From assembly GCA_018302505.1 (NCBI GenBank), contig JAGVZL010000052.1, forward strand, positions 1-45,662: a DNA stretch of 45,662 nucleotides, written 5' to 3'. Below, one piece after another: positions 7,267-19,612 of this stretch. Under the pieces are notes generated by a model. The model did no database searches. It was given only the letters and a program-made list of their open reading frames with translations, and was not told where the DNA came from. Positions within the stretch are counted from its first letter, which is position 1. Each line of letters opens with the position of its first letter. Position numbers and translations under genes: made by a program. Source of the stretch: Candidatus Woesearchaeota archaeon (GTDB lineage: Archaea > Nanobdellota > Nanobdellia > SCGC-AAA011-G17 > ARS1403).

Positions 7267-7316
7267 AAATTCTAAGCAATTCTTAAAATATTTATTCAAC
7301 CAAAAAATTTAAAAAT

Positions 7317-7354
7317 AAGTGTATATTTGTTAGTTAAGTGTATATTTGTTAGTT
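7317..7354. repeat. Perfect 19-bp tandem duplication AAGTGTATATTTGTTAGTT x2
   Basis: 7317-7335 and 7336-7354 are identical. The repeat ends 2 nt before ATG 7357, and each copy carries a TATA-like TATATTT. Confidence 0.95.
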
Positions 7355-7356
7355 AA

Positions 7357-7740
7357 ATGGTAGAAAAAATAAACCATCAAGATATTTCCTTAGATAATGT
7401 GGCTGTTTTGACAGATATGGGCATTAATCAAAGACAAGCCCTAGAAACATTAGCTGTTTTTTCAGATTTAAGGATTGCAATGGCAGTAGTAGGGACTTAT
7501 AAACATCCTCCAACAAAATTGGGTCAAACTTTTGGAGATTATGATCATTATCTTACCCAAATTATATATGCAATATCAGGTATATCTCCCCCTTCTGATG
7601 AGCTTACTTTATATGAAGATGAAGTTGCAGAGCGGACTACAATGGTTTCAGAAAGAGAATTACATCAAGATCGTTATAGGGACAGACCTTGGAATTCTAG
7701 CCATTTTTATGAGCATTTAGCATCCAGATTAGGAGAATAA
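7357..7740 (+). CDS. Hypothetical protein (possible UBA-like N-terminal segment)
   Basis: 127 aa. DISLDNVAVLTDMGINQRQALETLAVFSDLRIAMAVV weakly resembles a UBA-type three-helix motif. Composition is non-backbone (Arg/Asp/His/Tyr-rich). Confidence 0.35.
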   Translation: MVEKINHQDISLDNVAVLTDMGINQRQALETLAVFSDLRIAMAVVGTYKHPPTKLGQTFGDYDHYLTQIIYAISGISPPSDELTLYEDEVAERTTMVSERELHQDRYRDRPWNSSHFYEHLASRLGE

Positions 7741-7941: not shown

Positions 7942-8784
7942 ATGAAAAATGATGAGGTGATAGAAAAAGTAGAAAGAGAATTAAAATTGTTAGGGCTTAG
8001 TCCTAGAACCATTAGCTCTTATCAACTATATCTTAAAGAACTATTCAAATTTACTGGAAAACTTCATTCAAGAATTCAGTTTAAAGATATTAAGCAATTC
8101 TTAGAATATTTAACTTTAGAAAAAAACTATTCCGGCTCAAGTTTAAACATCGTGAGATCAGCAATTTCTTTCTATTATGAGAAAATGTTAGAAAAATATC
8201 CTATTAGTAAGATAAGGGTTAAGAAAGTAGGCAAAAAACTTCCAGGAGTCTTAACAAAACAAGAAGTAAAAAAAATAATTGATGTAGCCGATAGCCTAAG
8301 AGATAAATTAATAGTTCAAATAATGTATTCCTGTGGTTTAAGGGTTTCCGAAGCTACAAACCTAAAATTAGAAGACTTAGATACCTCTAGAATGGTTGGC
8401 ATTATTAGGTCTGGAAAAGGAAACAAAGATAGGGCAATTCAATTAAACACACCATTAGTAAACAATATTGAAGCTTATCTCAAAACTAAAAAACTACCTT
8501 CAAAATTCATATTTTCAAAAACAAATGGAACACCTTACACTACTAGATCTTTTCAGATTATCATAAAAAAACTAGCAGAAAAAGCAGGAATAACAAAAAG
8601 GGTCCATTCCCATATATTTAGACATGCTTTTGGAACTCATTTAGTTGAAAAAGGAATAAACATTGTAAGGGTGCAGGGAATGATGGGTCATTCTAATTTG
8701 GAAACAACAAAAACTTATGTTAATCTATCTGCTGAGCAATTTAAAGGAGTTGGAAATTTATTGGATGATTTGGAAGAAGAATGA
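7942..8784 (+). CDS. Tyrosine recombinase / integrase (XerA/XerC-D family)
   Basis: 280 aa. Catalytic signature: GLRVSEATNL (Arg), KGNKDRAI (Lys), HSHIFRHAFGTHL (His-x-x-Arg), GHSNLETTKTYVNL (His...Tyr). Confidence 0.85.
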   Translation: MKNDEVIEKVERELKLLGLSPRTISSYQLYLKELFKFTGKLHSRIQFKDIKQFLEYLTLEKNYSGSSLNIVRSAISFYYEKMLEKYPISKIRVKKVGKKLPGVLTKQEVKKIIDVADSLRDKLIVQIMYSCGLRVSEATNLKLEDLDTSRMVGIIRSGKGNKDRAIQLNTPLVNNIEAYLKTKKLPSKFIFSKTNGTPYTTRSFQIIIKKLAEKAGITKRVHSHIFRHAFGTHLVEKGINIVRVQGMMGHSNLETTKTYVNLSAEQFKGVGNLLDDLEEE

Positions 8785-9323
8785 AAGACACAATATCTGT
8801 CAAGACAATAGAAATGGTGCAAGACATATTTCAACAAGGAGATGAAAGATATAACGATTATCAAAGTGCAATAGATGTTGCAGAATTCATAGATAATAAT
8901 GCAATAATAGTAGAGAAAAAAGAAATAGATGCTGTAAAAATTCCTAAAAAAGAAATAGACGAAATAAATGGACCTCAGCAATATTACAAAGCACTGGCAA
9001 AAAGAGTCTCAGATAAGAAAGGTTACAGATTTATAGGCTATGAAAAAAATTTCCCTGGCGGAATAGTTGATGCTCTAGCAGAAGATACTTCCGGAAATAA
9101 AATTGCCATAGAATGCTGTTCATGCAGGATTTCCAAGGCAATAAGCTACTTAGAAGAAGAAAACACTATTTTATGGATATTATCTATTTCAGATAAACCA
9201 ATAGAAGTTACAAAATACCCCCTATTTATAATCAAAAGAGGCCCAAATTGGGATGCTGTCTATAAAAGATATAATGGCTGGAGAATAAATTTAATTAAAA
9301 ACGTTAAAAGTCCAAGGGATTAA
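8781..9323 (+). CDS. Hypothetical protein coupled to the recombinase gene
   Basis: 180 aa. Its start overlaps the recombinase stop (ATGA at 8781-8784). The C-terminal half (GIVDALAED..NKIAIECCS) could be a degenerate PD-(D/E)xK fold, but I cannot support that firmly. Confidence 0.4.
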   Translation: MKDTISVKTIEMVQDIFQQGDERYNDYQSAIDVAEFIDNNAIIVEKKEIDAVKIPKKEIDEINGPQQYYKALAKRVSDKKGYRFIGYEKNFPGGIVDALAEDTSGNKIAIECCSCRISKAISYLEEENTILWILSISDKPIEVTKYPLFIIKRGPNWDAVYKRYNGWRINLIKNVKSPRD

Positions 9324-9598
9324 CTTTTTTTGTAAATATTGTCATGATGGTCATAATCAGTAAAATAAATGAAATCTTTTTGTTTATCATAAGAAAACAC
9401 AAGCACAAAAGATTTTTTAATATGTACACTTTTAAATAATTGTAATGGATTCCTCAGGTTCTTATAATGCTCAGGATCATCACAATTAATAATTTCTTTA
9501 ATTTTATTCAGAATCTGCCCATAAGCATCTTTATCTTTTTTTGAAATTTTCTCCAATGTTTTTTCTAGATTTTTGCTTAATTTATAAGGACGAGCCAT
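9320..9598 (-). CDS. RelE/ParE-superfamily toxin (type II TA)
   Basis: 92 aa. The pattern LEKISKKDKDAY..ILNKIKEI...HYKNL..PLQLFKSVHIKKSFVLVFSYD....IYFTDYDHHDNIYK matches RelE/StbE-like toxins. It lies 1 nt downstream of a small antitoxin-like ORF. Confidence 0.6.
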   Translation of the reverse strand: MARPYKLSKNLEKTLEKISKKDKDAYGQILNKIKEIINCDDPEHYKNLRNPLQLFKSVHIKKSFVLVFSYDKQKDFIYFTDYDHHDNIYKKS

Positions 9599-9599
9599 T

Positions 9600-9845
9600 T
9601 TAACCCGACTCTATTTTCTTTCTCAATTCTTCTATAGATCTAAAAGTTTCACCATAACCTTCTTTCTCAATTCTCTTTATTTTTTCAATATATTCAGGCC
9701 TTAACTCAGGTTCTAGAAGTTCTTCTCCATAGCCCATAGTTACTAGTTCTATTGCTTCTGACTTGTCTTTCAAATTATGCTTTGCTTTTACTATGTTTAA
9801 TATATGATTTGCATTCTTGCTAATGTTTATTATTGCCTGTACCAT
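9600..9845 (-). CDS. Putative antitoxin (DUF2683-like archaeal family)
   Basis: 81 aa. MVQAIINISKNANHILNIVKAKHNLKDKSEAIELV...LEPELRPEYIEKIK resembles the archaeal DUF2683 / RHH-like antitoxin pattern. It sits immediately upstream of the RelE-like ORF. Confidence 0.5.
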   Translation of the reverse strand: MVQAIINISKNANHILNIVKAKHNLKDKSEAIELVTMGYGEELLEPELRPEYIEKIKRIEKEGYGETFRSIEELRKKIESG

Positions 9846-9881: not shown

Positions 9882-10082
9882 CTACACACTATCATAACCA
9901 CATAAAACAATATCTGGTTTTTTAATACCTTTAAAATATTTGCAGATTGAGACATTTTTAACAGCGCATTTATGTTTATTCGTATTTTCTTCTTCATTCC
10001 AGGGGCATTTATCCTGTTTCCAGGAAACATCTTTTTGTGTTATTAGATCAATATCCATGTTTGCACCTTTCAGTTGTTTCAT
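9882..10082 (-). CDS. Small Cys-containing hypothetical protein
   Basis: 66 aa with 4 Cys (KCPW, HKCAV, SICKY, VLCGY). It is on the same strand as the TA pair and upstream of it. Confidence 0.3.
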   Translation of the reverse strand: MKQLKGANMDIDLITQKDVSWKQDKCPWNEEENTNKHKCAVKNVSICKYFKGIKKPDIVLCGYDSV

Positions 10083-10144: not shown

Positions 10145-10300
10145 ATGAATATGGTAGATGTAATATCTTTCGTAGTTTTGTGGATTATAGCCAGTTTGAT
10201 CTGGGCCATATGGTTGGATGGAGTTTATACACCGATAGCAGGAGTAATTACCGCAGGTATAGCTTCTGGCGGATTTAAATTAATATTCCATAATAAATAA
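10145..10300 (+). CDS. Possible small membrane protein (not in ORF track)
   Basis: My own translation gives MNMVDVISFVVLWIIASLIWAIWLDGVYTPIAGVITAGIASGGFKLIFHNK (51 aa, two hydrophobic segments). It ends 1 nt before the MazG-like ATG. Promoter spacing is not canonical, so support is weak. Confidence 0.25.
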   Translation: MNMVDVISFVVLWIIASLIWAIWLDGVYTPIAGVITAGIASGGFKLIFHNK

Positions 10301-10301
10301 A

Positions 10302-10661
10302 ATGGACAAAAAAACAAATCTCCACGAATTAAAAGAAAAAATAAAGAAATTTTGTGAAGAAAGAGACTGGGATCAATATCACAATGCAAAAGAGTTATCT
10401 ATCGGGATTATTACAGAGGCTTCTGAATTATTGGAACATTTCAGATTCAAATCAGAAAAAGAAATAGAAGAAATGTTCAAAAACGAAAAGAGAGAACAAA
10501 TTTCAGAGGAATTAATAGACACTCTTTACTTTATCTTGAGATTCGCACAAAAATACAATATAGATTTAACAATCGAATTAAATAAAAAGATGGAAAAGAA
10601 TCATAAAAAATATCCAATAGACAAAATCAAGGGAAGCAATAAAAAATATACTGAAATATGA
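10302..10661 (+). CDS. mazG: MazG-like nucleoside-triphosphate pyrophosphohydrolase (all-alpha NTP-PPase, DCTPP1-like)
   Basis: 119 aa. It carries the typical ERDWDQYHNAKELSIGIITEASELLEHF and EELIDTLYFILRFAQKYNIDL..ELNKKMEKNHKKYP metal-binding helices. The TATA-like TTTAAATTAA ends 19 nt upstream. Confidence 0.8.
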   Translation: MDKKTNLHELKEKIKKFCEERDWDQYHNAKELSIGIITEASELLEHFRFKSEKEIEEMFKNEKREQISEELIDTLYFILRFAQKYNIDLTIELNKKMEKNHKKYPIDKIKGSNKKYTEI

Positions 10662-12535
10662 GACTCTACGAAGACGCAGTTAAAGCATTCAAAGAAGATG
10701 TAACACAAAATAAGATAGCAGATAAGATTTCAAATAGATATCAGGATTATTATAAAAAAAAAGCAAGTATTTCAGAAGTTAGATCTTGGACTAATTCTTT
10801 AAATTTTGTAAAAAACGTCTTAGAATACGCACCCATTGAAGAAAATAAGATTATTGTTGAATATGAATTACCTTACTCGGAAAAAAGAATAGATGTTTTA
10901 ATATTTGGAAAAGATGCACAAGGAAATGAAAATATTGTAGTTATAGAACTAAAACAATGGTCAAATGAAAATGTAGATGATTCTGAGCATGAAGGTAATG
11001 TAAGGGTAGATTACGGAAAAGCTAAGGTGGAGTTGCCTCATCCATCTTTACAGGTAGAAGGGTATTGCTGGCATCTAAGGGATTTCTTAACTGTTTTTGA
11101 TGAAAAACCACAAATCTTACTAAATGCTTGTATTTATTGTCATAATTATAATAAAGGAGAAAATGAAGTTCTTTATTTGCCCAAATTCAAAAAAGACCTT
11201 GAAACTTATCCGGTCTTCTCAAAACAAGAAATGAAAGACCTTGGAGAATTTCTTAAAACAAAATTATCCTCAGACTCAGGCTTAGAAGTTTTTGGAAGAT
11301 TCACCCACAGCATTTTACGACCTTCTAAAAAATTAATGGAACATACAGGAGAAATGATTAATGAACAAAAAATATTCAACTTAATTGATGAACAAATTAC
11401 TTCCTATAATGCAATTATGCATCAAGCTAAAAATTTAGCTCAATCAAAAGAAAAATCCGTTATAATAATTAAAGGCGGACCTGGAACCGGAAAATCTGTA
11501 ATAGCCTTAGAAGTAATGGGGGAGTTATTAAGAAGAGAAATTAGTGTTATCCATGCAACAGGTTCTTCAGCATTTACAAATACTTTAAGAAAAATTCTCG
11601 GACCCAGATGTGCAAACCAATTTAAGTTCTTCAATAGTTTTATTGATAAATCAAAATTTAAAGAAAATGAATTCGATGTTTTAATTTGCGATGAAGCACA
11701 TAGAATTAGAAAAACAAGCGATAGTATGTATACACAAAAACATCTTAGAACAGGAGAACCGCAAATAAATGAACTTATTAGGGTAGCTAAATTAATTATC
11801 TTTTTTATAGATGAACACCAAGTTGTTAGACCTAATGAACTCGGAAGTGTTAATTTAATAAAAAAAGCGACAGAAACTTTTGATGCTAAAATTTATGAAA
11901 TGCCGGAATTAAAAACACAGTTTAGATGTGGTGGCTCAGGAAATTATTTAGAAAAAATTGAAAAAGTATTAAGGATCTACGAAGAAGGTGCAGACATCGA
12001 ACTCGATGAAGAAACAAAAATGGAATTCAAAATTGTAGATTCTCCTCACGAATTAAAAAGATTAATTGACCAAAAGAATAGAGAAAAGAAGAATTCAGCA
12101 AGAATGGTTGCAGGGTTCTGTTGGCCATGGAGTAAACCGAATAGGGATGGTTCTTTAGTTAATGATGTTAAAATAAATGATTTTGAAATGCCTTGGGAGA
12201 ATAAAGATGAATTTTGGAGATGGGCAACCGAAGATTCCGGAATGGATCAAGTTGGGACAGTCTACACTTCTCAAGGATTTGAATTTGATTATATTGGAGT
12301 TATTTTCGGAAATGATCTAGTCTGGAATAAAGAAACAAAAAGCTGGTACGCAAAACCTGAAAATTCTTGTGATAGTGCTGCTAAGAGGGGAAATGATGAA
12401 TTCGCAAAACATCTAAAAAACGTTTATAGAGTTTTATTAACAAGAGCCCACAAAGGAGTCTTTGTTTATTTCATTGACGAAACTACTAAAGAATATTTTA
12501 AAGAGAATGCTAAGAAGCTAGGATTTAAAGTCTAA
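10658..12535 (+). CDS. DUF2075-type protein: N-terminal PD-(D/E)xK-like nuclease + Schlafen-group-3-type SF1 helicase/ATPase
   Basis: 625 aa. The N-terminus has EKRIDVLIFGKD...VVIELKQW (D...ExK). Walker A is GGPGTGKS and Walker B is LICDEAHR. The C-terminal VYTSQGFEFDYIGVIFG and YRVLLTRAHKGVFVYF are typical of DUF2075. The start overlaps the MazG stop (ATGA 10658-10661). Confidence 0.8.
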   Translation: MRLYEDAVKAFKEDVTQNKIADKISNRYQDYYKKKASISEVRSWTNSLNFVKNVLEYAPIEENKIIVEYELPYSEKRIDVLIFGKDAQGNENIVVIELKQWSNENVDDSEHEGNVRVDYGKAKVELPHPSLQVEGYCWHLRDFLTVFDEKPQILLNACIYCHNYNKGENEVLYLPKFKKDLETYPVFSKQEMKDLGEFLKTKLSSDSGLEVFGRFTHSILRPSKKLMEHTGEMINEQKIFNLIDEQITSYNAIMHQAKNLAQSKEKSVIIIKGGPGTGKSVIALEVMGELLRREISVIHATGSSAFTNTLRKILGPRCANQFKFFNSFIDKSKFKENEFDVLICDEAHRIRKTSDSMYTQKHLRTGEPQINELIRVAKLIIFFIDEHQVVRPNELGSVNLIKKATETFDAKIYEMPELKTQFRCGGSGNYLEKIEKVLRIYEEGADIELDEETKMEFKIVDSPHELKRLIDQKNREKKNSARMVAGFCWPWSKPNRDGSLVNDVKINDFEMPWENKDEFWRWATEDSGMDQVGTVYTSQGFEFDYIGVIFGNDLVWNKETKSWYAKPENSCDSAAKRGNDEFAKHLKNVYRVLLTRAHKGVFVYFIDETTKEYFKENAKKLGFKV

Positions 12536-13189
12536 CCAGTTCCAAAAACTATCTTTACCAATTATAACATGGTCTAAAACTAATATTCCTAATATTTCAC
12601 CGGTTTCTATGATTTTTTTTGTGATTTCTATATCCTCTTCTGATGGTGCAGGATCTCCGGATGGATGATTATGTACAAGCATTATACTAAAAGAATTTTC
12701 TTTAATAGCAGCCTTAAAAACTTCTCTTGGATGTATCAAAGAAGCATTCAAAGTACCAATACAAATCCTATGAACTTTATTAACACAATTTTTAGTATCT
12801 AAGCAAACTACATACAAATGCTCTTCATTATAGTCTTTAACTCTATTAACAAACATATCAAAAATATCTTTAGCACTTTTAATCTCTTTTTTATTAAACC
12901 CACCATTAACTAATGTTCCATATCTTTTGCATAATTGAATTAAGCTTAAAATCTTTAAAGCAGCTACTTTATCATTATTGCATTCTTTTTTAAGAACTTC
13001 AAAGCCAATATCATAAATCTTATTCAAGTTATATTTTTTTAATAATTTATTAGTAAATTCTAAAATACTGGCATCTTTAACTTTTCCAAGAACAATAGCC
13101 AATAATTCATAATCGCTTAAAACCCCAGCACCATATTTAATTAACCTCTCACTAGGCCTGTCATAAAAAGCTATTTCTTTAATCTTCAT
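12518..13189 (-). CDS. radC: RadC-like JAB/MPN domain protein
   Basis: 223 aa. It has the JAMM motif MLVHNHPSGDPAPSEEDIEITKK, the N-terminal RPSERLIKYGAGVLSDYELLAIVLG HhH-like region, and a TATA box at canonical spacing. Confidence 0.85.
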   Translation of the reverse strand: MKIKEIAFYDRPSERLIKYGAGVLSDYELLAIVLGKVKDASILEFTNKLLKKYNLNKIYDIGFEVLKKECNNDKVAALKILSLIQLCKRYGTLVNGGFNKKEIKSAKDIFDMFVNRVKDYNEEHLYVVCLDTKNCVNKVHRICIGTLNASLIHPREVFKAAIKENSFSIMLVHNHPSGDPAPSEEDIEITKKIIETGEILGILVLDHVIIGKDSFWNWLDFKS

Positions 13190-13278
13190 TTATCTAAACT
13201 TAAATTTTTGCTTTAAAAAGATTAATAGAATTTAAACTATATTTTAGAATTAACAAAAGTAACACCATGGAGACTTCT

Positions 13279-16776: not shown

Positions 16777-16833
16777 TATACACACGATGTGTATTTAAAA
16801 CATAAGATCTAAATAGTAATTTATACACACGAT
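16777..16833. promoter_or_regulatory. Candidate operator repeats upstream of the doc operon
   Basis: The 12-bp direct repeat TATACACACGAT occurs at 16777-16788 and 16822-16833. The first copy is embedded in the inverted repeat TACACA-CGA-TGTGTA (16779-16793). The second copy ends 5 nt before ATG 16838. Confidence 0.45.
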
Positions 16834-16837
16834 ATTT

Positions 16838-17176
16838 ATGAATCTAACAAAAAAAGATATTGTAGCAATAAACGAGAAATTTGCTTCAGGTCACTTTGAG
16901 AACGAATCAAGCTTAAATTTTGCATTAAAGCATTCAAAACACTCAATTGCCTGGACAAAGCAGTTAGCTTATTTAATTAGGGCCGTCTTAATAGACCACG
17001 TTTTTGTTGATGCCAATAAAAGAACTTCATATACATTATTGCTAACCTTTGTAGAGTTAAATGATTGGAATATTGATGAAAAACAAGCAGTAGAGATAAT
17101 AAAGAGTTTAGTATTAAAAAAAGAAAAAAGCATAACTAACATTCAAAGGAGGGTAGAAAATGCCATCACAAAGTGA
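16838..17176 (+). CDS. doc: Doc (death-on-curing) family toxin, Fic fold
   Basis: 112 aa. It has the Doc-type motif HVFVDANKRTS, i.e. HxFx(D/N)(A/G)NKR. Confidence 0.75.
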   Translation: MNLTKKDIVAINEKFASGHFENESSLNFALKHSKHSIAWTKQLAYLIRAVLIDHVFVDANKRTSYTLLLTFVELNDWNIDEKQAVEIIKSLVLKKEKSITNIQRRVENAITK

Positions 17177-17999: not shown

Positions 18000-18827
18000 A
18001 TGGATAAAGAAGAATTTTTAAAAAAATTAGAAGCAGAATTAAAAATTTCAAGCAATTCCACACATACAATCCGGAACTATTTATCTTCTAATAAATTTTT
18101 ATTGGATTTTGCAAATAAGACTCCGGAGGAGATTACTCATGAGGATGTTAAATCCTACTTAGCTGAAAAACTAAATAACGCTTCCTCAATGACTAAGATC
18201 TTATTTTTATCCGCAATTAAATATTCTTTCTCAAATATTCTTAAAAAAGATATAACAATAGATATTAAAAGACCGAAAAAAGAAAAGAAAATTCCTTCTG
18301 TTCTATCAAAAGAAGAAGTTAAAAGTTTAATGGATTCAATTCAAAATAAAAAATCAAAGTTGATGGTTTCTTTAACTTACGCTGCAGGTTTAAGGGTTTC
18401 AGAATTGGTAAATTTAAAGACCCATGATTTTGACTTTACTCAAAAAACAGGGCATATTAGGCAGGATAAAGGAAGAAAAGACAGAATCTTTAATATCCCG
18501 GAGAATTTATTGGAAGATTTGCAAAAACAAGCTGAAAAACAAAAAGAAAAGAACCAATTATTTTTATTTTCAAGTTTTAAAGGTCAGATGACCACAAGAA
18601 ATATTCAAAAAATAGTTTCAAAAGTAGCTAAGAAAGTAGGGATAGAAAAGGAAGTTCATCCTCATACATTAAGACATTCTTTCGCGACGCATTTATTGGA
18701 AAACGGAACTGATATCAGGCACATTCAAAAGCTATTAGGTCATAGTTCGTTAAATACAACTCAAGTTTATACAAATATTTCAGCAGAGCAGATAAAGAAG
18801 ATTAAAAGCCCAATAGATAGTCCTTAA
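18000..18827 (+). CDS. xerA: Tyrosine recombinase XerA-like
   Basis: 275 aa. Motifs: GLRVSELVNL, KGRKDRIF, HPHTLRHSFATHL, LGHSSLNTTQVYTNI. Size and N-terminal SAM-like domain are typical of archaeal XerA. Confidence 0.8.
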   Translation: MDKEEFLKKLEAELKISSNSTHTIRNYLSSNKFLLDFANKTPEEITHEDVKSYLAEKLNNASSMTKILFLSAIKYSFSNILKKDITIDIKRPKKEKKIPSVLSKEEVKSLMDSIQNKKSKLMVSLTYAAGLRVSELVNLKTHDFDFTQKTGHIRQDKGRKDRIFNIPENLLEDLQKQAEKQKEKNQLFLFSSFKGQMTTRNIQKIVSKVAKKVGIEKEVHPHTLRHSFATHLLENGTDIRHIQKLLGHSSLNTTQVYTNISAEQIKKIKSPIDSP

Positions 18828-18838
18828 ATTTCAATACT

Positions 18839-19612
18839 TTATTCTAACAACCTATCATAAGCAACATTAACCTTACTCGCCAAAAATTCGTAAGCTAAAT
18901 CTTCTTCAAGTGTAACTTTTGTACTTCTCTTAATTCTCTGATTATATGCTTGAATAGCAGTAGATAATAAATCAAAATAAAGGTGCCTTTCTCCCTCTTC
19001 TATTATAGCAGGTGGATATCCAGACATATTCAATAATACATTTTGAACCATCCGGGCAGTTCTCCCATTTCCATCCATAAATGGATGTATCCTTACTAAG
19101 TGGATATGTGCATGAACTGCTTTTTCTAAAGGCAAATCGATTCCCTTGTTTTCAAATAGGAACATATTTAATTCACTTTCTATTTGGTCAGCTTCTGGCG
19201 GGACCTGACCCCCATAAAGTACCATTTCCCTCCTAATCCCCCTAACAACATCCGGTTCAATTTTTCTGGCTATCGCTGTAAAATATTCAGTAGTGAACTC
19301 TCCATCATCAGGGAATATAATTTTAGCAAGGGTCCACGCATTTGCCAGCCTTGTAGTAGCCCTCTGCAAATCTTTTCGAGCGATTCTTTGTGCCCTTTTT
19401 GGCAAATCTCGTATATGTGCTAATGGGAACTCAATTCTTGCAGAATGAGCAATATGTCTTAAATCTTCGGGACGGGTTAATTGTGCCTCTCTACCCAATC
19501 CCCTTCTAGACACCTTATAATTAACTAAATTTAAAGTTGGATCTTCCAAAGTCTTCTTCCTTTTCCCTTCTATCTCCAAGTATAGGTTTCTTAAATTCAC
19601 TGATCTTGACAT
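18839..19612 (-). CDS. fic: Fic family protein (AMPylase-type Fido domain)
   Basis: 257 aa. It has the canonical motif HPFMDGNGRTARM, i.e. HxFx(D/E)GNGRxxR. A TATA box ends 21 nt upstream. Composition is non-backbone. Confidence 0.85.
   Translation of the reverse strand: MSRSVNLRNLYLEIEGKRKKTLEDPTLNLVNYKVSRRGLGREAQLTRPEDLRHIAHSARIEFPLAHIRDLPKRAQRIARKDLQRATTRLANAWTLAKIIFPDDGEFTTEYFTAIARKIEPDVVRGIRREMVLYGGQVPPEADQIESELNMFLFENKGIDLPLEKAVHAHIHLVRIHPFMDGNGRTARMVQNVLLNMSGYPPAIIEEGERHLYFDLLSTAIQAYNQRIKRSTKVTLEEDLAYEFLASKVNVAYDRLLE

Follow-up and report, generated by a model that had tools for sequence, protein, structure and literature searches.

Nhi of Staphylococcus epidermidis (SERP2475; Bari et al. 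2022) and Nhi-like of Bacillus cereus (SG141; Millman et al. 2022) are validated single-gene phage defences in which an N-terminal PD-(D/E)xK-type nuclease is fused to a DUF2075 superfamily 1 (SF1) helicase in one polypeptide. Nhi degrades phage replication intermediates (Bari et al. 2022). A two-gene candidate that also includes a DUF2075 protein appears under the name 'Pyrophosphatase' in Table S2 of Millman et al. 2022 (bioRxiv 10.1101/2022.05.11.491447), where it is represented by the constructs SG192 and SG193. The subject of this report is a gene pair of the latter kind in a 45,662-nucleotide (nt) contig (JAGVZL010000052.1; hereafter the window) from a Candidatus Woesearchaeota archaeon of the DPANN group. 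The pair encodes a MazG-like nucleoside triphosphate (NTP) pyrophosphohydrolase of 119 amino acids (aa) and a nuclease-helicase of 625 aa with the same fused arrangement as Nhi, and it is considered here as a plausible, unvalidated antiviral module. With a probability of about 0.55, it represents a two-gene variant of Nhi-type nuclease-helicase defence in which the MazG-like protein handles non-canonical deoxynucleoside triphosphates (dNTPs).

The candidates of Millman et al. were picked by defence-island statistics and tested under native promoters in Escherichia coli and Bacillus subtilis with 26 phages (10.1101/2022.05.11.491447). SG192, from Bacillus firmus LK28, comprises a 98-aa pyrophosphatase and a 643-aa DUF2075 protein and matches the window in gene content and order; SG193, from B. 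thuringiensis Lr3/2, has the opposite gene order and is listed as 'Cloning failed' (10.1101/2022.05.11.491447). Compared with SG192, the window MazG-like protein shows 49 % identity to the pyrophosphatase (E 3e-27), and the window helicase shows 34 % identity to the DUF2075 protein (E 2e-67) along 414 aa that start at residue 1 and include the nuclease-like region. Judged by these alignments, the window pair is a Woesearchaeota member of the 'Pyrophosphatase' candidate, although both published constructs come from Bacillus and the window copy from a DPANN archaeon. A literature search found no paper text that pairs DUF2075 or an Nhi-like protein with MazG, the only trace being the supplementary table of 2022. 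The initial annotation of the window, made from the sequence without database searches, did not know the pairing as a named system. It is indeed unnamed, but it had already been shortlisted as SG192 and SG193.

Four open reading frames (ORFs) occupy positions 10145-13189 of the window, three on the forward strand followed by one convergent ORF on the reverse strand (Table 1). Each has the position and length first assigned to it. The helicase ATG (10658-10660) and the MazG TGA (10659-10661) share the sequence ATGA with a 4-nt overlap, as had been noticed, and the helicase gene overlaps the convergent RadC gene by the expected 18 nt (12518-12535). Hidden Markov model (HMM) searches agree with the proposed MazG, DUF2075, NERD/PD-(D/E)xK and RadC assignments, all of them above their cut-offs, and the motifs GGPGTGKS (residues 273-280), LICDEAHR (342-349) and D79...E97-L-K99 are present in the translation of the larger gene.

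The C-terminal part of the 625-aa protein (residues 266-607) matches the PF09848 profile, SLFN-g3_helicase/DUF2075, from position 1 to 354 of 354 with 296.3 bits against a cut-off of 24 (E 4.5e-88). Its helicase motifs consist of Walker A (G273-S280), motif II (D345-E346-A-H348-R349), Q421/R423, T537-Q539-G540-E542 and R591/R596. Among 77 homologues of 36-79 % identity, the Walker A residues, D345-E346, H348, R349, Q421, R423, Q539, G540 and E542 are invariant, with S280, R591 and R596 nearly so. An AlphaFold2 (AF2) model built from a 25-sequence alignment has a mean predicted local distance difference test (pLDDT) score of 69.8 and is usable for the helicase fold alone. When the helicase part of this model is compared by Foldseek, it resembles the SF1B enzymes Dda, RecD2, Dna2, Upf1, IGHMBP2 and nsp13, has UvrD as a further structural neighbour, and finds SLFN14 at rank 18. 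A search of the PDB with a whole-protein profile returned the P-loop of HelD as its sole match.

Upstream of the helicase, residues 50-150 give a marginal match to the NERD domain (PF08378; 24.6 bits against a cut-off of 22.1, E 3.8e-5). In the same 77 homologues, E68, R77, D79, E97, K99, Q100 and W101 are invariant, and in a more divergent set with 30-53 % identity to the window protein, E40, E68, D79, E97 and K99 are all invariant. The nuclease-like D...ExK motif of the initial annotation is therefore upheld, with D79, E97 and K99 kept in both divergent alignments. Residues E68, D79, E97 and K99, together with E40 upstream, are the putative catalytic residues. Homologues of the N-terminal nuclease-like domain (E <= 1e-10) form about 680 clusters when grouped at 50 % identity. 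In four loci (L012, L031, L040 and L081, the last of them on the Hymenobacter plasmid NZ_CP114769), two DUF2075 nuclease-helicase paralogues stand in tandem.

The family PF09848 is named after the group-3 Schlafen proteins (SLFN5, SLFN11, SLFN13 and SLFN14), which share this C-terminal helicase and have an antiviral role. Their N-terminal part is a Schlafen/AlbA_2 RNase core, whereas the window protein has a NERD-type DNA-nuclease-like domain in its place, and no Schlafen-core or AlbA_2 match was found in the 625-aa protein by Pfam at E <= 0.01. The label of a Schlafen-type helicase is thus acceptable for the domain family, while the protein itself was rejected as a Schlafen because it lacks the RNase core. 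In bacteria, the published Schlafen defence papers are about the RNase domain and not the DUF2075 helicase. The connection between DUF2075, the Schlafen helicase and Nhi, as drawn in the initial annotation, is as the Pfam family and the Nhi literature describe it. Within that connection, the window protein seems only distantly related to validated Nhi, at the level of the superfamily. The PADLOC Nhi model matches residues 242-407 only (E 7.7e-15) and the identity to SG141, whose motifs read GEPGAGKT and DEAQR, is 20 % (E 8e-7), so the protein was rejected as a bona fide Nhi family member. A further difference is that Nhi and Nhi-like have no MazG partner whereas the window protein has one. The best PADLOC match is instead PDC-S41 (E 2.1e-25), a single-gene unvalidated candidate with a profile of similar length (657); the match covers residues 3-312 only, and a literature search on PDC-S41 found no paper. 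AbiO follows at E 7.7e-14.

Turning to the partner gene, the 119-aa protein matches the MazG-like family PF12643 (45.5 bits against a cut-off of 27, E 9e-12), and over residues 6-119 it matches mouse RS21-C6 (PDB 2a3q, E 5.3e-17) and dCTP pyrophosphatase 1 (DCTPP1; 6sqw, E 5.5e-17). The all-alpha MazG-type fold family is common to these enzymes (2a3q, 6sqw and 2oig), as is the ExxE...ExxD metal-binding motif, which is formed in the window protein by E39, E42, E70 and D73 in alignment with their mouse counterparts. In addition, W23, F49 and F77 occupy the positions of mouse W47, W73 and Y102. Across 49 helicase-linked MazG homologues, E39, E42, E70, D73, W23, H27 and K96 are invariant. From these alignments, the protein is a clear homologue of mammalian DCTPP1/RS21-C6. 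DCTPP1 is a eukaryotic house-cleaning enzyme without a helicase partner, unlike the window protein, and the mammalian enzyme favours dCTP and 5-modified dCTPs. Since the nuclease, helicase and MazG metal-site residues are all invariant, both proteins are likely to be active enzymes.

The two genes are repeatedly found adjacent to each other, a linkage that the initial annotation proposed to check across archaea and bacteria. More than 7,600 helicase homologues were found, and a scan that took one genome per GTDB species yielded 80 loci from diverse archaea and bacteria, with helicases 36-79 % identical to that of the window. An HMM built from MazG homologues located a MazG gene in 55 of them. 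In 44 of the 80 it immediately precedes the helicase gene in the same orientation, at a distance of -4 to +50 nt, and 14 of these 44 have the identical 4-nt overlap. In any orientation, it is adjacent in 50 of the 80 loci; the six rearranged cases have it downstream (L059, L069 and L071), convergent (L060) or divergent (L056 and L058), so that the linkage persists even where order or orientation has changed. When the neighbouring ORFs are clustered all against all, MazG is the sole conserved neighbour (53 loci), the next family reaching 9 loci. Most helicase clades show the linkage, the main exception being one clade of Chloroflexia. For the reciprocal test, 80 metagenomic loci were found with the MazG protein, and among the 75 with room downstream the helicase follows directly in 58. 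The adjacency is therefore conserved in both directions and is not confined to the genome of the window. Because MazG-type genes are rare in genomes and these frequencies are high, the adjacency should not be due to chance; the association is real and ancient. Pairwise identities of helicases and MazG proteins correlate modestly (r = 0.34) and were therefore left unused as evidence of co-evolution.

The company kept by the pair differs from locus to locus. The 149 genes that directly flank the module in the 80 loci include 10 HNH_2 endonucleases, 5 RadC genes and DUF3427-type type IV methyl-directed restriction enzymes (E down to 1.9e-262), along with type I restriction subunits, BrxP, DrmD and BrxH. 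When neighbours are assigned by cluster membership, 15 of the 80 loci have an HNH_2, McrBC-like or type IV gene no more than 6 kb away. On a Priestia plasmid, the order is restriction endonuclease, MutT, DUF3578, MazG and DUF2075, followed by a type I restriction-modification (RM) system, and in L092, where the helicase is 88 % identical to that of the window, a gene with a DndB domain lies 1.1 kb upstream with a radical-SAM gene in between. MazG genes of this subfamily that have no helicase adjoin a McrB-like AAA_5 gene and a DUF2357/PDDEXK_7 gene (PADLOC PDC-M26A/B), or stand beside a Cas4-like nuclease, an SNF2 helicase, an HNH protein or an Eco57I-type enzyme. Both the module and this MazG subfamily thus recurrently adjoin type IV restriction endonucleases, McrBC-like pairs and HNH_2 nucleases.

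Some of these neighbours recur in particular arrangements. McrB/McrC-like pairs of the PDC-M26A/B type lie near MazG or the module in L133 (3501-7357), L156, L160, L016 (1187-5607) and L045 (8051-13071). A TPR protein with a HExxH metallopeptidase-like motif and no PADLOC match is encoded upstream of the helicase in L032, L041, L050, L063, L069, L079 and L081, and upstream of the MazG-McrBC-like genes in L133, L156 and L160; the L069 and L133 proteins share 41 % identity. No match to the enterobacterial three-gene version of L069 was found by megablast in all complete E. coli genomes. In 16 loci, many of them from DPANN archaea, a Cas4-like PD-(D/E)xK nuclease (PDDEXK_1; PADLOC Cas4 E 1e-10) is encoded directly upstream of MazG, with or without the helicase (for example L002 4988-5644, L094 1-228, L096, L097, L131 and L166). 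The Cas4-like gene is present in the close relatives L094 and L002 and absent from the window, where a 51-aa ORF holds that position.

The same surroundings bear on whether the pair works for the cell at all. It may instead serve a mobile element, in replication, maintenance, anti-restriction or the exclusion of competitors, and have arrived together with the integrase island. The window pair belongs to a variable island flanked by two tyrosine recombinases, accompanied by toxin-antitoxin genes, and homologues occur in 110 plasmid records. RadC-like JAB genes are common mobile-element cargo and phage MazG proteins are known auxiliary genes. Yet the typing assigns 91 of the 110 plasmids to large, non-mobilizable replicons, only 4 of 50,697 phage records have a homologue, and no consistent mobile-element core genes (replication, relaxase or capsid) accompany the pair in 160 loci. 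Excluding competing elements would, in mechanism, amount to defence. A role confined to the mobile element appears quite improbable.

If the pair does act in defence, the two translationally coupled genes would form a self-contained, horizontally mobile module with the 625-aa protein as its Nhi-/Dna2-like effector. The DUF2075 SF1-type ATP motor would carry the PD-(D/E)xK/NERD-type nuclease along foreign DNA and degrade it. The DCTPP1-like enzyme would be a dedicated partner, most likely acting on non-canonical, base-modified dNTPs. This role is proposed because DCTPP1 prefers 5-modified dCTPs, the active site is invariant and modification-dependent restriction genes are found nearby. Two options may be envisaged. 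In one, the MazG-like protein would remove the modified dNTPs that viruses make to shield their own DNA. In the other, it would clean the host pool of modified nucleotides freed by the degradation of foreign DNA, thereby sparing host DNA from becoming a target. Other nucleotide-pool defences, such as dCTP deaminases and dGTPases, likewise place a nucleotide-hydrolysing enzyme in a defence context; they belong to other enzyme families with other chemistry, and they are stand-alone effectors whereas the MazG-like protein, an all-alpha enzyme predicted to work by pyrophosphohydrolysis, would be an accessory of the nuclease-helicase. While anatomy, linkage, invariant catalytic residues and genomic context are observed, a role in defence, the choice of substrates and any physical or regulatory link between the two proteins are inferred. 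A bolder version, which is doubtful at present, would have the pair provide pan-prokaryotic immunity in DPANN archaea, the candidate phyla radiation (CPR) and most bacterial phyla against viruses with chemically modified DNA. The MazG-like protein would destroy modified dNTPs or block recycled ones while the nuclease-helicase shreds the invader, and some variants might be switched on by LexA-like self-cleavage.

The coupling of a small upstream gene to a large effector is also reminiscent of toxin-antitoxin operons. The MazG-like protein may then be a regulator or antitoxin of a toxic nuclease-helicase, holding down the level of a nucleotide activator or substrate until the pool shifts on infection. 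Nucleotide-controlled defence effectors are known, and the failed cloning of SG193 would be compatible with toxicity. The many helicase homologues without MazG, however, imply that the helicase is not obligatorily toxic, and McrBC-like and other nucleases are found with the same MazG subfamily, which fits a general role in the nucleotide pool better than that of a specific antitoxin. Antitoxin control of this kind is accordingly judged very improbable.

Several observations weigh against a two-gene defence module. The pair has been tested once in print, as SG192, and no defence was seen, the entry in the table being 'x' (10.1101/2022.05.11.491447). In 25 of the 80 helicase loci, including the whole Chloroflexia clade, there is no MazG nearby, so some members of the family can do without MazG. 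No structural evidence confirms the nuclease fold. Because the pLDDT of the nuclease core (residues 71-99) falls below 50 in the AF2 model, the assignment rests on the NERD match and the motif rather than on structure, and when the N-terminal domain was used as a profile against the PDB, only spurious matches to designed armadillo repeats came back. The association with defence islands is qualitative and has no background control; the neighbourhood check that the initial annotation called for yielded frequent restriction and defence genes. Finally, the best 120 helicase matches, labelled as several DPANN groups and Thermotogae, are 58-99 % identical to the window protein, and the 58-88 % identity seen among them across DPANN archaea and bacteria is unusually high for a defence gene.

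Some of these observations would be equally at home in DNA repair or house-cleaning, which is the main rival explanation; service to a mobile element and toxin-antitoxin-like control are lesser ones. Here a Dna2-/AddAB-like nuclease-helicase would work on damaged ends or stalled forks, with the MazG-like protein clearing damaged or non-canonical dNTPs under replication stress. The negative phage screen and the high sequence conservation are what such a module would show. Its structural neighbours include Dna2, RecD2 and UvrD, MutT and RadC genes are sometimes adjacent, and DCTPP1 and MazG enzymes are classical house-cleaners. A C-terminal Peptidase_S24 (LexA/UmuD-like) domain adds to this list. 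It is carried by about 10 of 80 family members (approximately 1 in 8), in helicase ORFs of 777-841 aa (L008, L012, L013, L021, L027, L034, L044, L047, L050 and L069). The serine of the GxSM motif and the lysine of (V/I)K align to LexA S119 and K156, which leaves the Ser-Lys dyad intact, and an A-(A/C)-G-like stretch occupies the place where LexA is cleaved. The fusion suggests activation or inactivation through RecA*-type self-cleavage and, with it, an SOS-type control that would suit repair. On the other hand, the phyletic distribution is patchy. The genes are found on plasmids, in integrase-flanked islands and in a different neighbourhood at every locus, and their neighbours are restriction and defence genes rather than repair operons. 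In L091, from the same population as the window, the helicase gene is split into ORFs of 331 and 269 aa (10357-12234), which is either a pseudogene or an assembly error and would not be expected of a core repair gene. On balance, repair is unlikely to be the function of the pair.

The preferred reading remains that of a nuclease-helicase defence with a nucleotide-handling partner. If that partner acts on modified nucleotides, a negative result with a phage panel poor in modified genomes would become explicable. The two-gene defence module of the initial annotation is thus sustained by linkage, motifs and neighbourhood, while it is not original and has one negative published test. As an interpretation, a defence candidate is reasonable; the pair has been tried once without a phenotype and is still unnamed. 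As an observation on its history, each of the two proteins shows 60-88 % identity when copies from DPANN archaea are compared with those in bacterial records. The bacterial labels are Thermotogae for the helicase and Falkowbacteria for MazG, and CPR labels occur among the MazG matches only. This cross-domain identity suggests recent transfer among episymbiont-type organisms.

Two further ORFs had been considered alongside the pair. The RadC protein is well supported (PF04002, 135.9 bits against a cut-off of 22.1, E 8.7e-40; NCBIfam PRK00024, 183.1 bits against a cut-off of 180, E 5.3e-54), and its translation has the JAB metal motif HxHPSG...D in the form HNHPSGDPAPSEED. A convergent, overlapping RadC gene is also found in L092/L093, L094, L001 and L002, whose helicases are 75-88 % identical to that of the window, and RadC is adjacent in 5 of 80 helicase loci overall. 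As annotated, the flanking gene is present and convergent, but its conservation is limited to the closest DPANN relatives; by this distribution, RadC is a lineage-specific companion outside the core of the module. The 51-aa ORF, taken as a possible membrane miniprotein, is hydrophobic in sequence and is called as a gene in contigs from the same population. It is probably co-transcribed with MazG in the window. It is absent upstream of MazG in L092, L094, L001 and L002, and a tblastn search against the other loci found no homologue, which rules it out as a component of the module. Divergent from the operon that it forms with MazG is a cysteine-rich ORF of 66 aa, called in all contigs of the same population and having no family match.

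Table 1. Positions of the gene pair, its domains and the surrounding island features in the window.
Feature	Position	Strand	Remarks
Perfect 19-nt tandem duplication	7316-7353		Just upstream of the 127-aa ORF at 7357
Tyrosine recombinase, left side of island	7942-8784	+	Pfam Phage_integrase E 3.8e-44
180-aa ORF	8781-9323	+	Weak NucS_C/PD-(D/E)xK-like match, E 0.003
YafQ/RelE-type toxin	9320-9598	-	NCBIfam TIGR00053 YafQ E 9.6e-17
DUF2683 antitoxin	9600-9845	-	Pfam DUF2683 E 2.8e-11
66-aa cysteine-rich ORF	9882-10082	-	
51-aa hydrophobic ORF	10145-10300	+	Ends 1 nt 5' of the MazG start
MazG-like all-alpha NTP pyrophosphohydrolase, 119 aa	10302-10661	+	PF12643; DCTPP1/RS21-C6 homology
Nuclease-helicase, 625 aa	10658-12535	+	NERD/PD-(D/E)xK-like N-terminus; C-terminal DUF2075 (SLFN-g3) SF1-type helicase
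Nuclease-like core of the 625-aa protein	10805-11107	+	Residues about 50-150, NERD match
Helicase/ATPase domain of the 625-aa protein	11453-12478	+	Residues 266-607, full-length PF09848 match
RadC-like JAB protein, 223 aa	12518-13189	-	PF04002; convergent with the helicase gene
Near-palindromic 18-mer, two copies 45 nt apart	16777-16839		Upstream of the ORF at 16838
112-aa ORF	16838-17176	+	Weak Fic match; 1.7 kb from the Fic gene
Second tyrosine recombinase, right side of island	18000-18827	+	Pfam Phage_integrase E 4.6e-44
Fic protein beside the second integrase	18839-19612	-	Pfam Fic E 7.3e-15; PADLOC SoFic E 9.4e-16

The window looks archaeal, with a G+C content of about 30 % and genes for LonB and for the arginyl- and seryl-tRNA synthetases (ArgRS and SerRS), and public records of identical proteins bear the label Candidatus Woesearchaeota. 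A search for direct repeats around both integrases that could be att sites gave short AT-rich matches only, none of them convincing, and there are no tRNA genes or Rfam matches in the window to mark an integration site. Other repeats are present in the form of the 19-nt tandem duplication (TAAGTGTATATTTGTTAGT, twice) and the near-palindromic 18-mer (TATACACACGATGTGTAT). The 180-aa ORF overlaps the stop codon of the first integrase gene by 4 nt and, from its weak match, may be a nuclease coupled to the recombinase. The 112-aa ORF may be a fragment. Immediately after RadC, the island is in flux at the level of strains, several contigs of the same population having an extra MNT-HEPN pair. This toxin-antitoxin pair (MNT being NTP_transf_2/Polbeta) is found in L084, L085, L087 and L090 at about 13014-14125 in L084 coordinates. 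The insertion lies between RadC and a 132-aa gene and is absent from the window (13190-13278). L086 has different genes at this position, which makes it a strain-variable hot spot.

Apart from CRISPR and restriction-modification, little of archaeal defence has been charted. If functional, the pair would be among the more widespread unvalidated defence modules, given the more than 7,600 helicase homologues, and one of the few that are common to DPANN archaea and bacteria at 60-80 % identity. The recurrent company of type IV restriction provides a concrete and testable idea, namely that the pair acts on modified nucleotides. The pair also links two families with human relatives that are antiviral or protect the genome, the Schlafen helicase domain and DCTPP1. 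Should the modified-DNA reading be true, the pair would be a prokaryotic precedent for combining DCTPP1-type pool sanitation with a Schlafen-type helicase.

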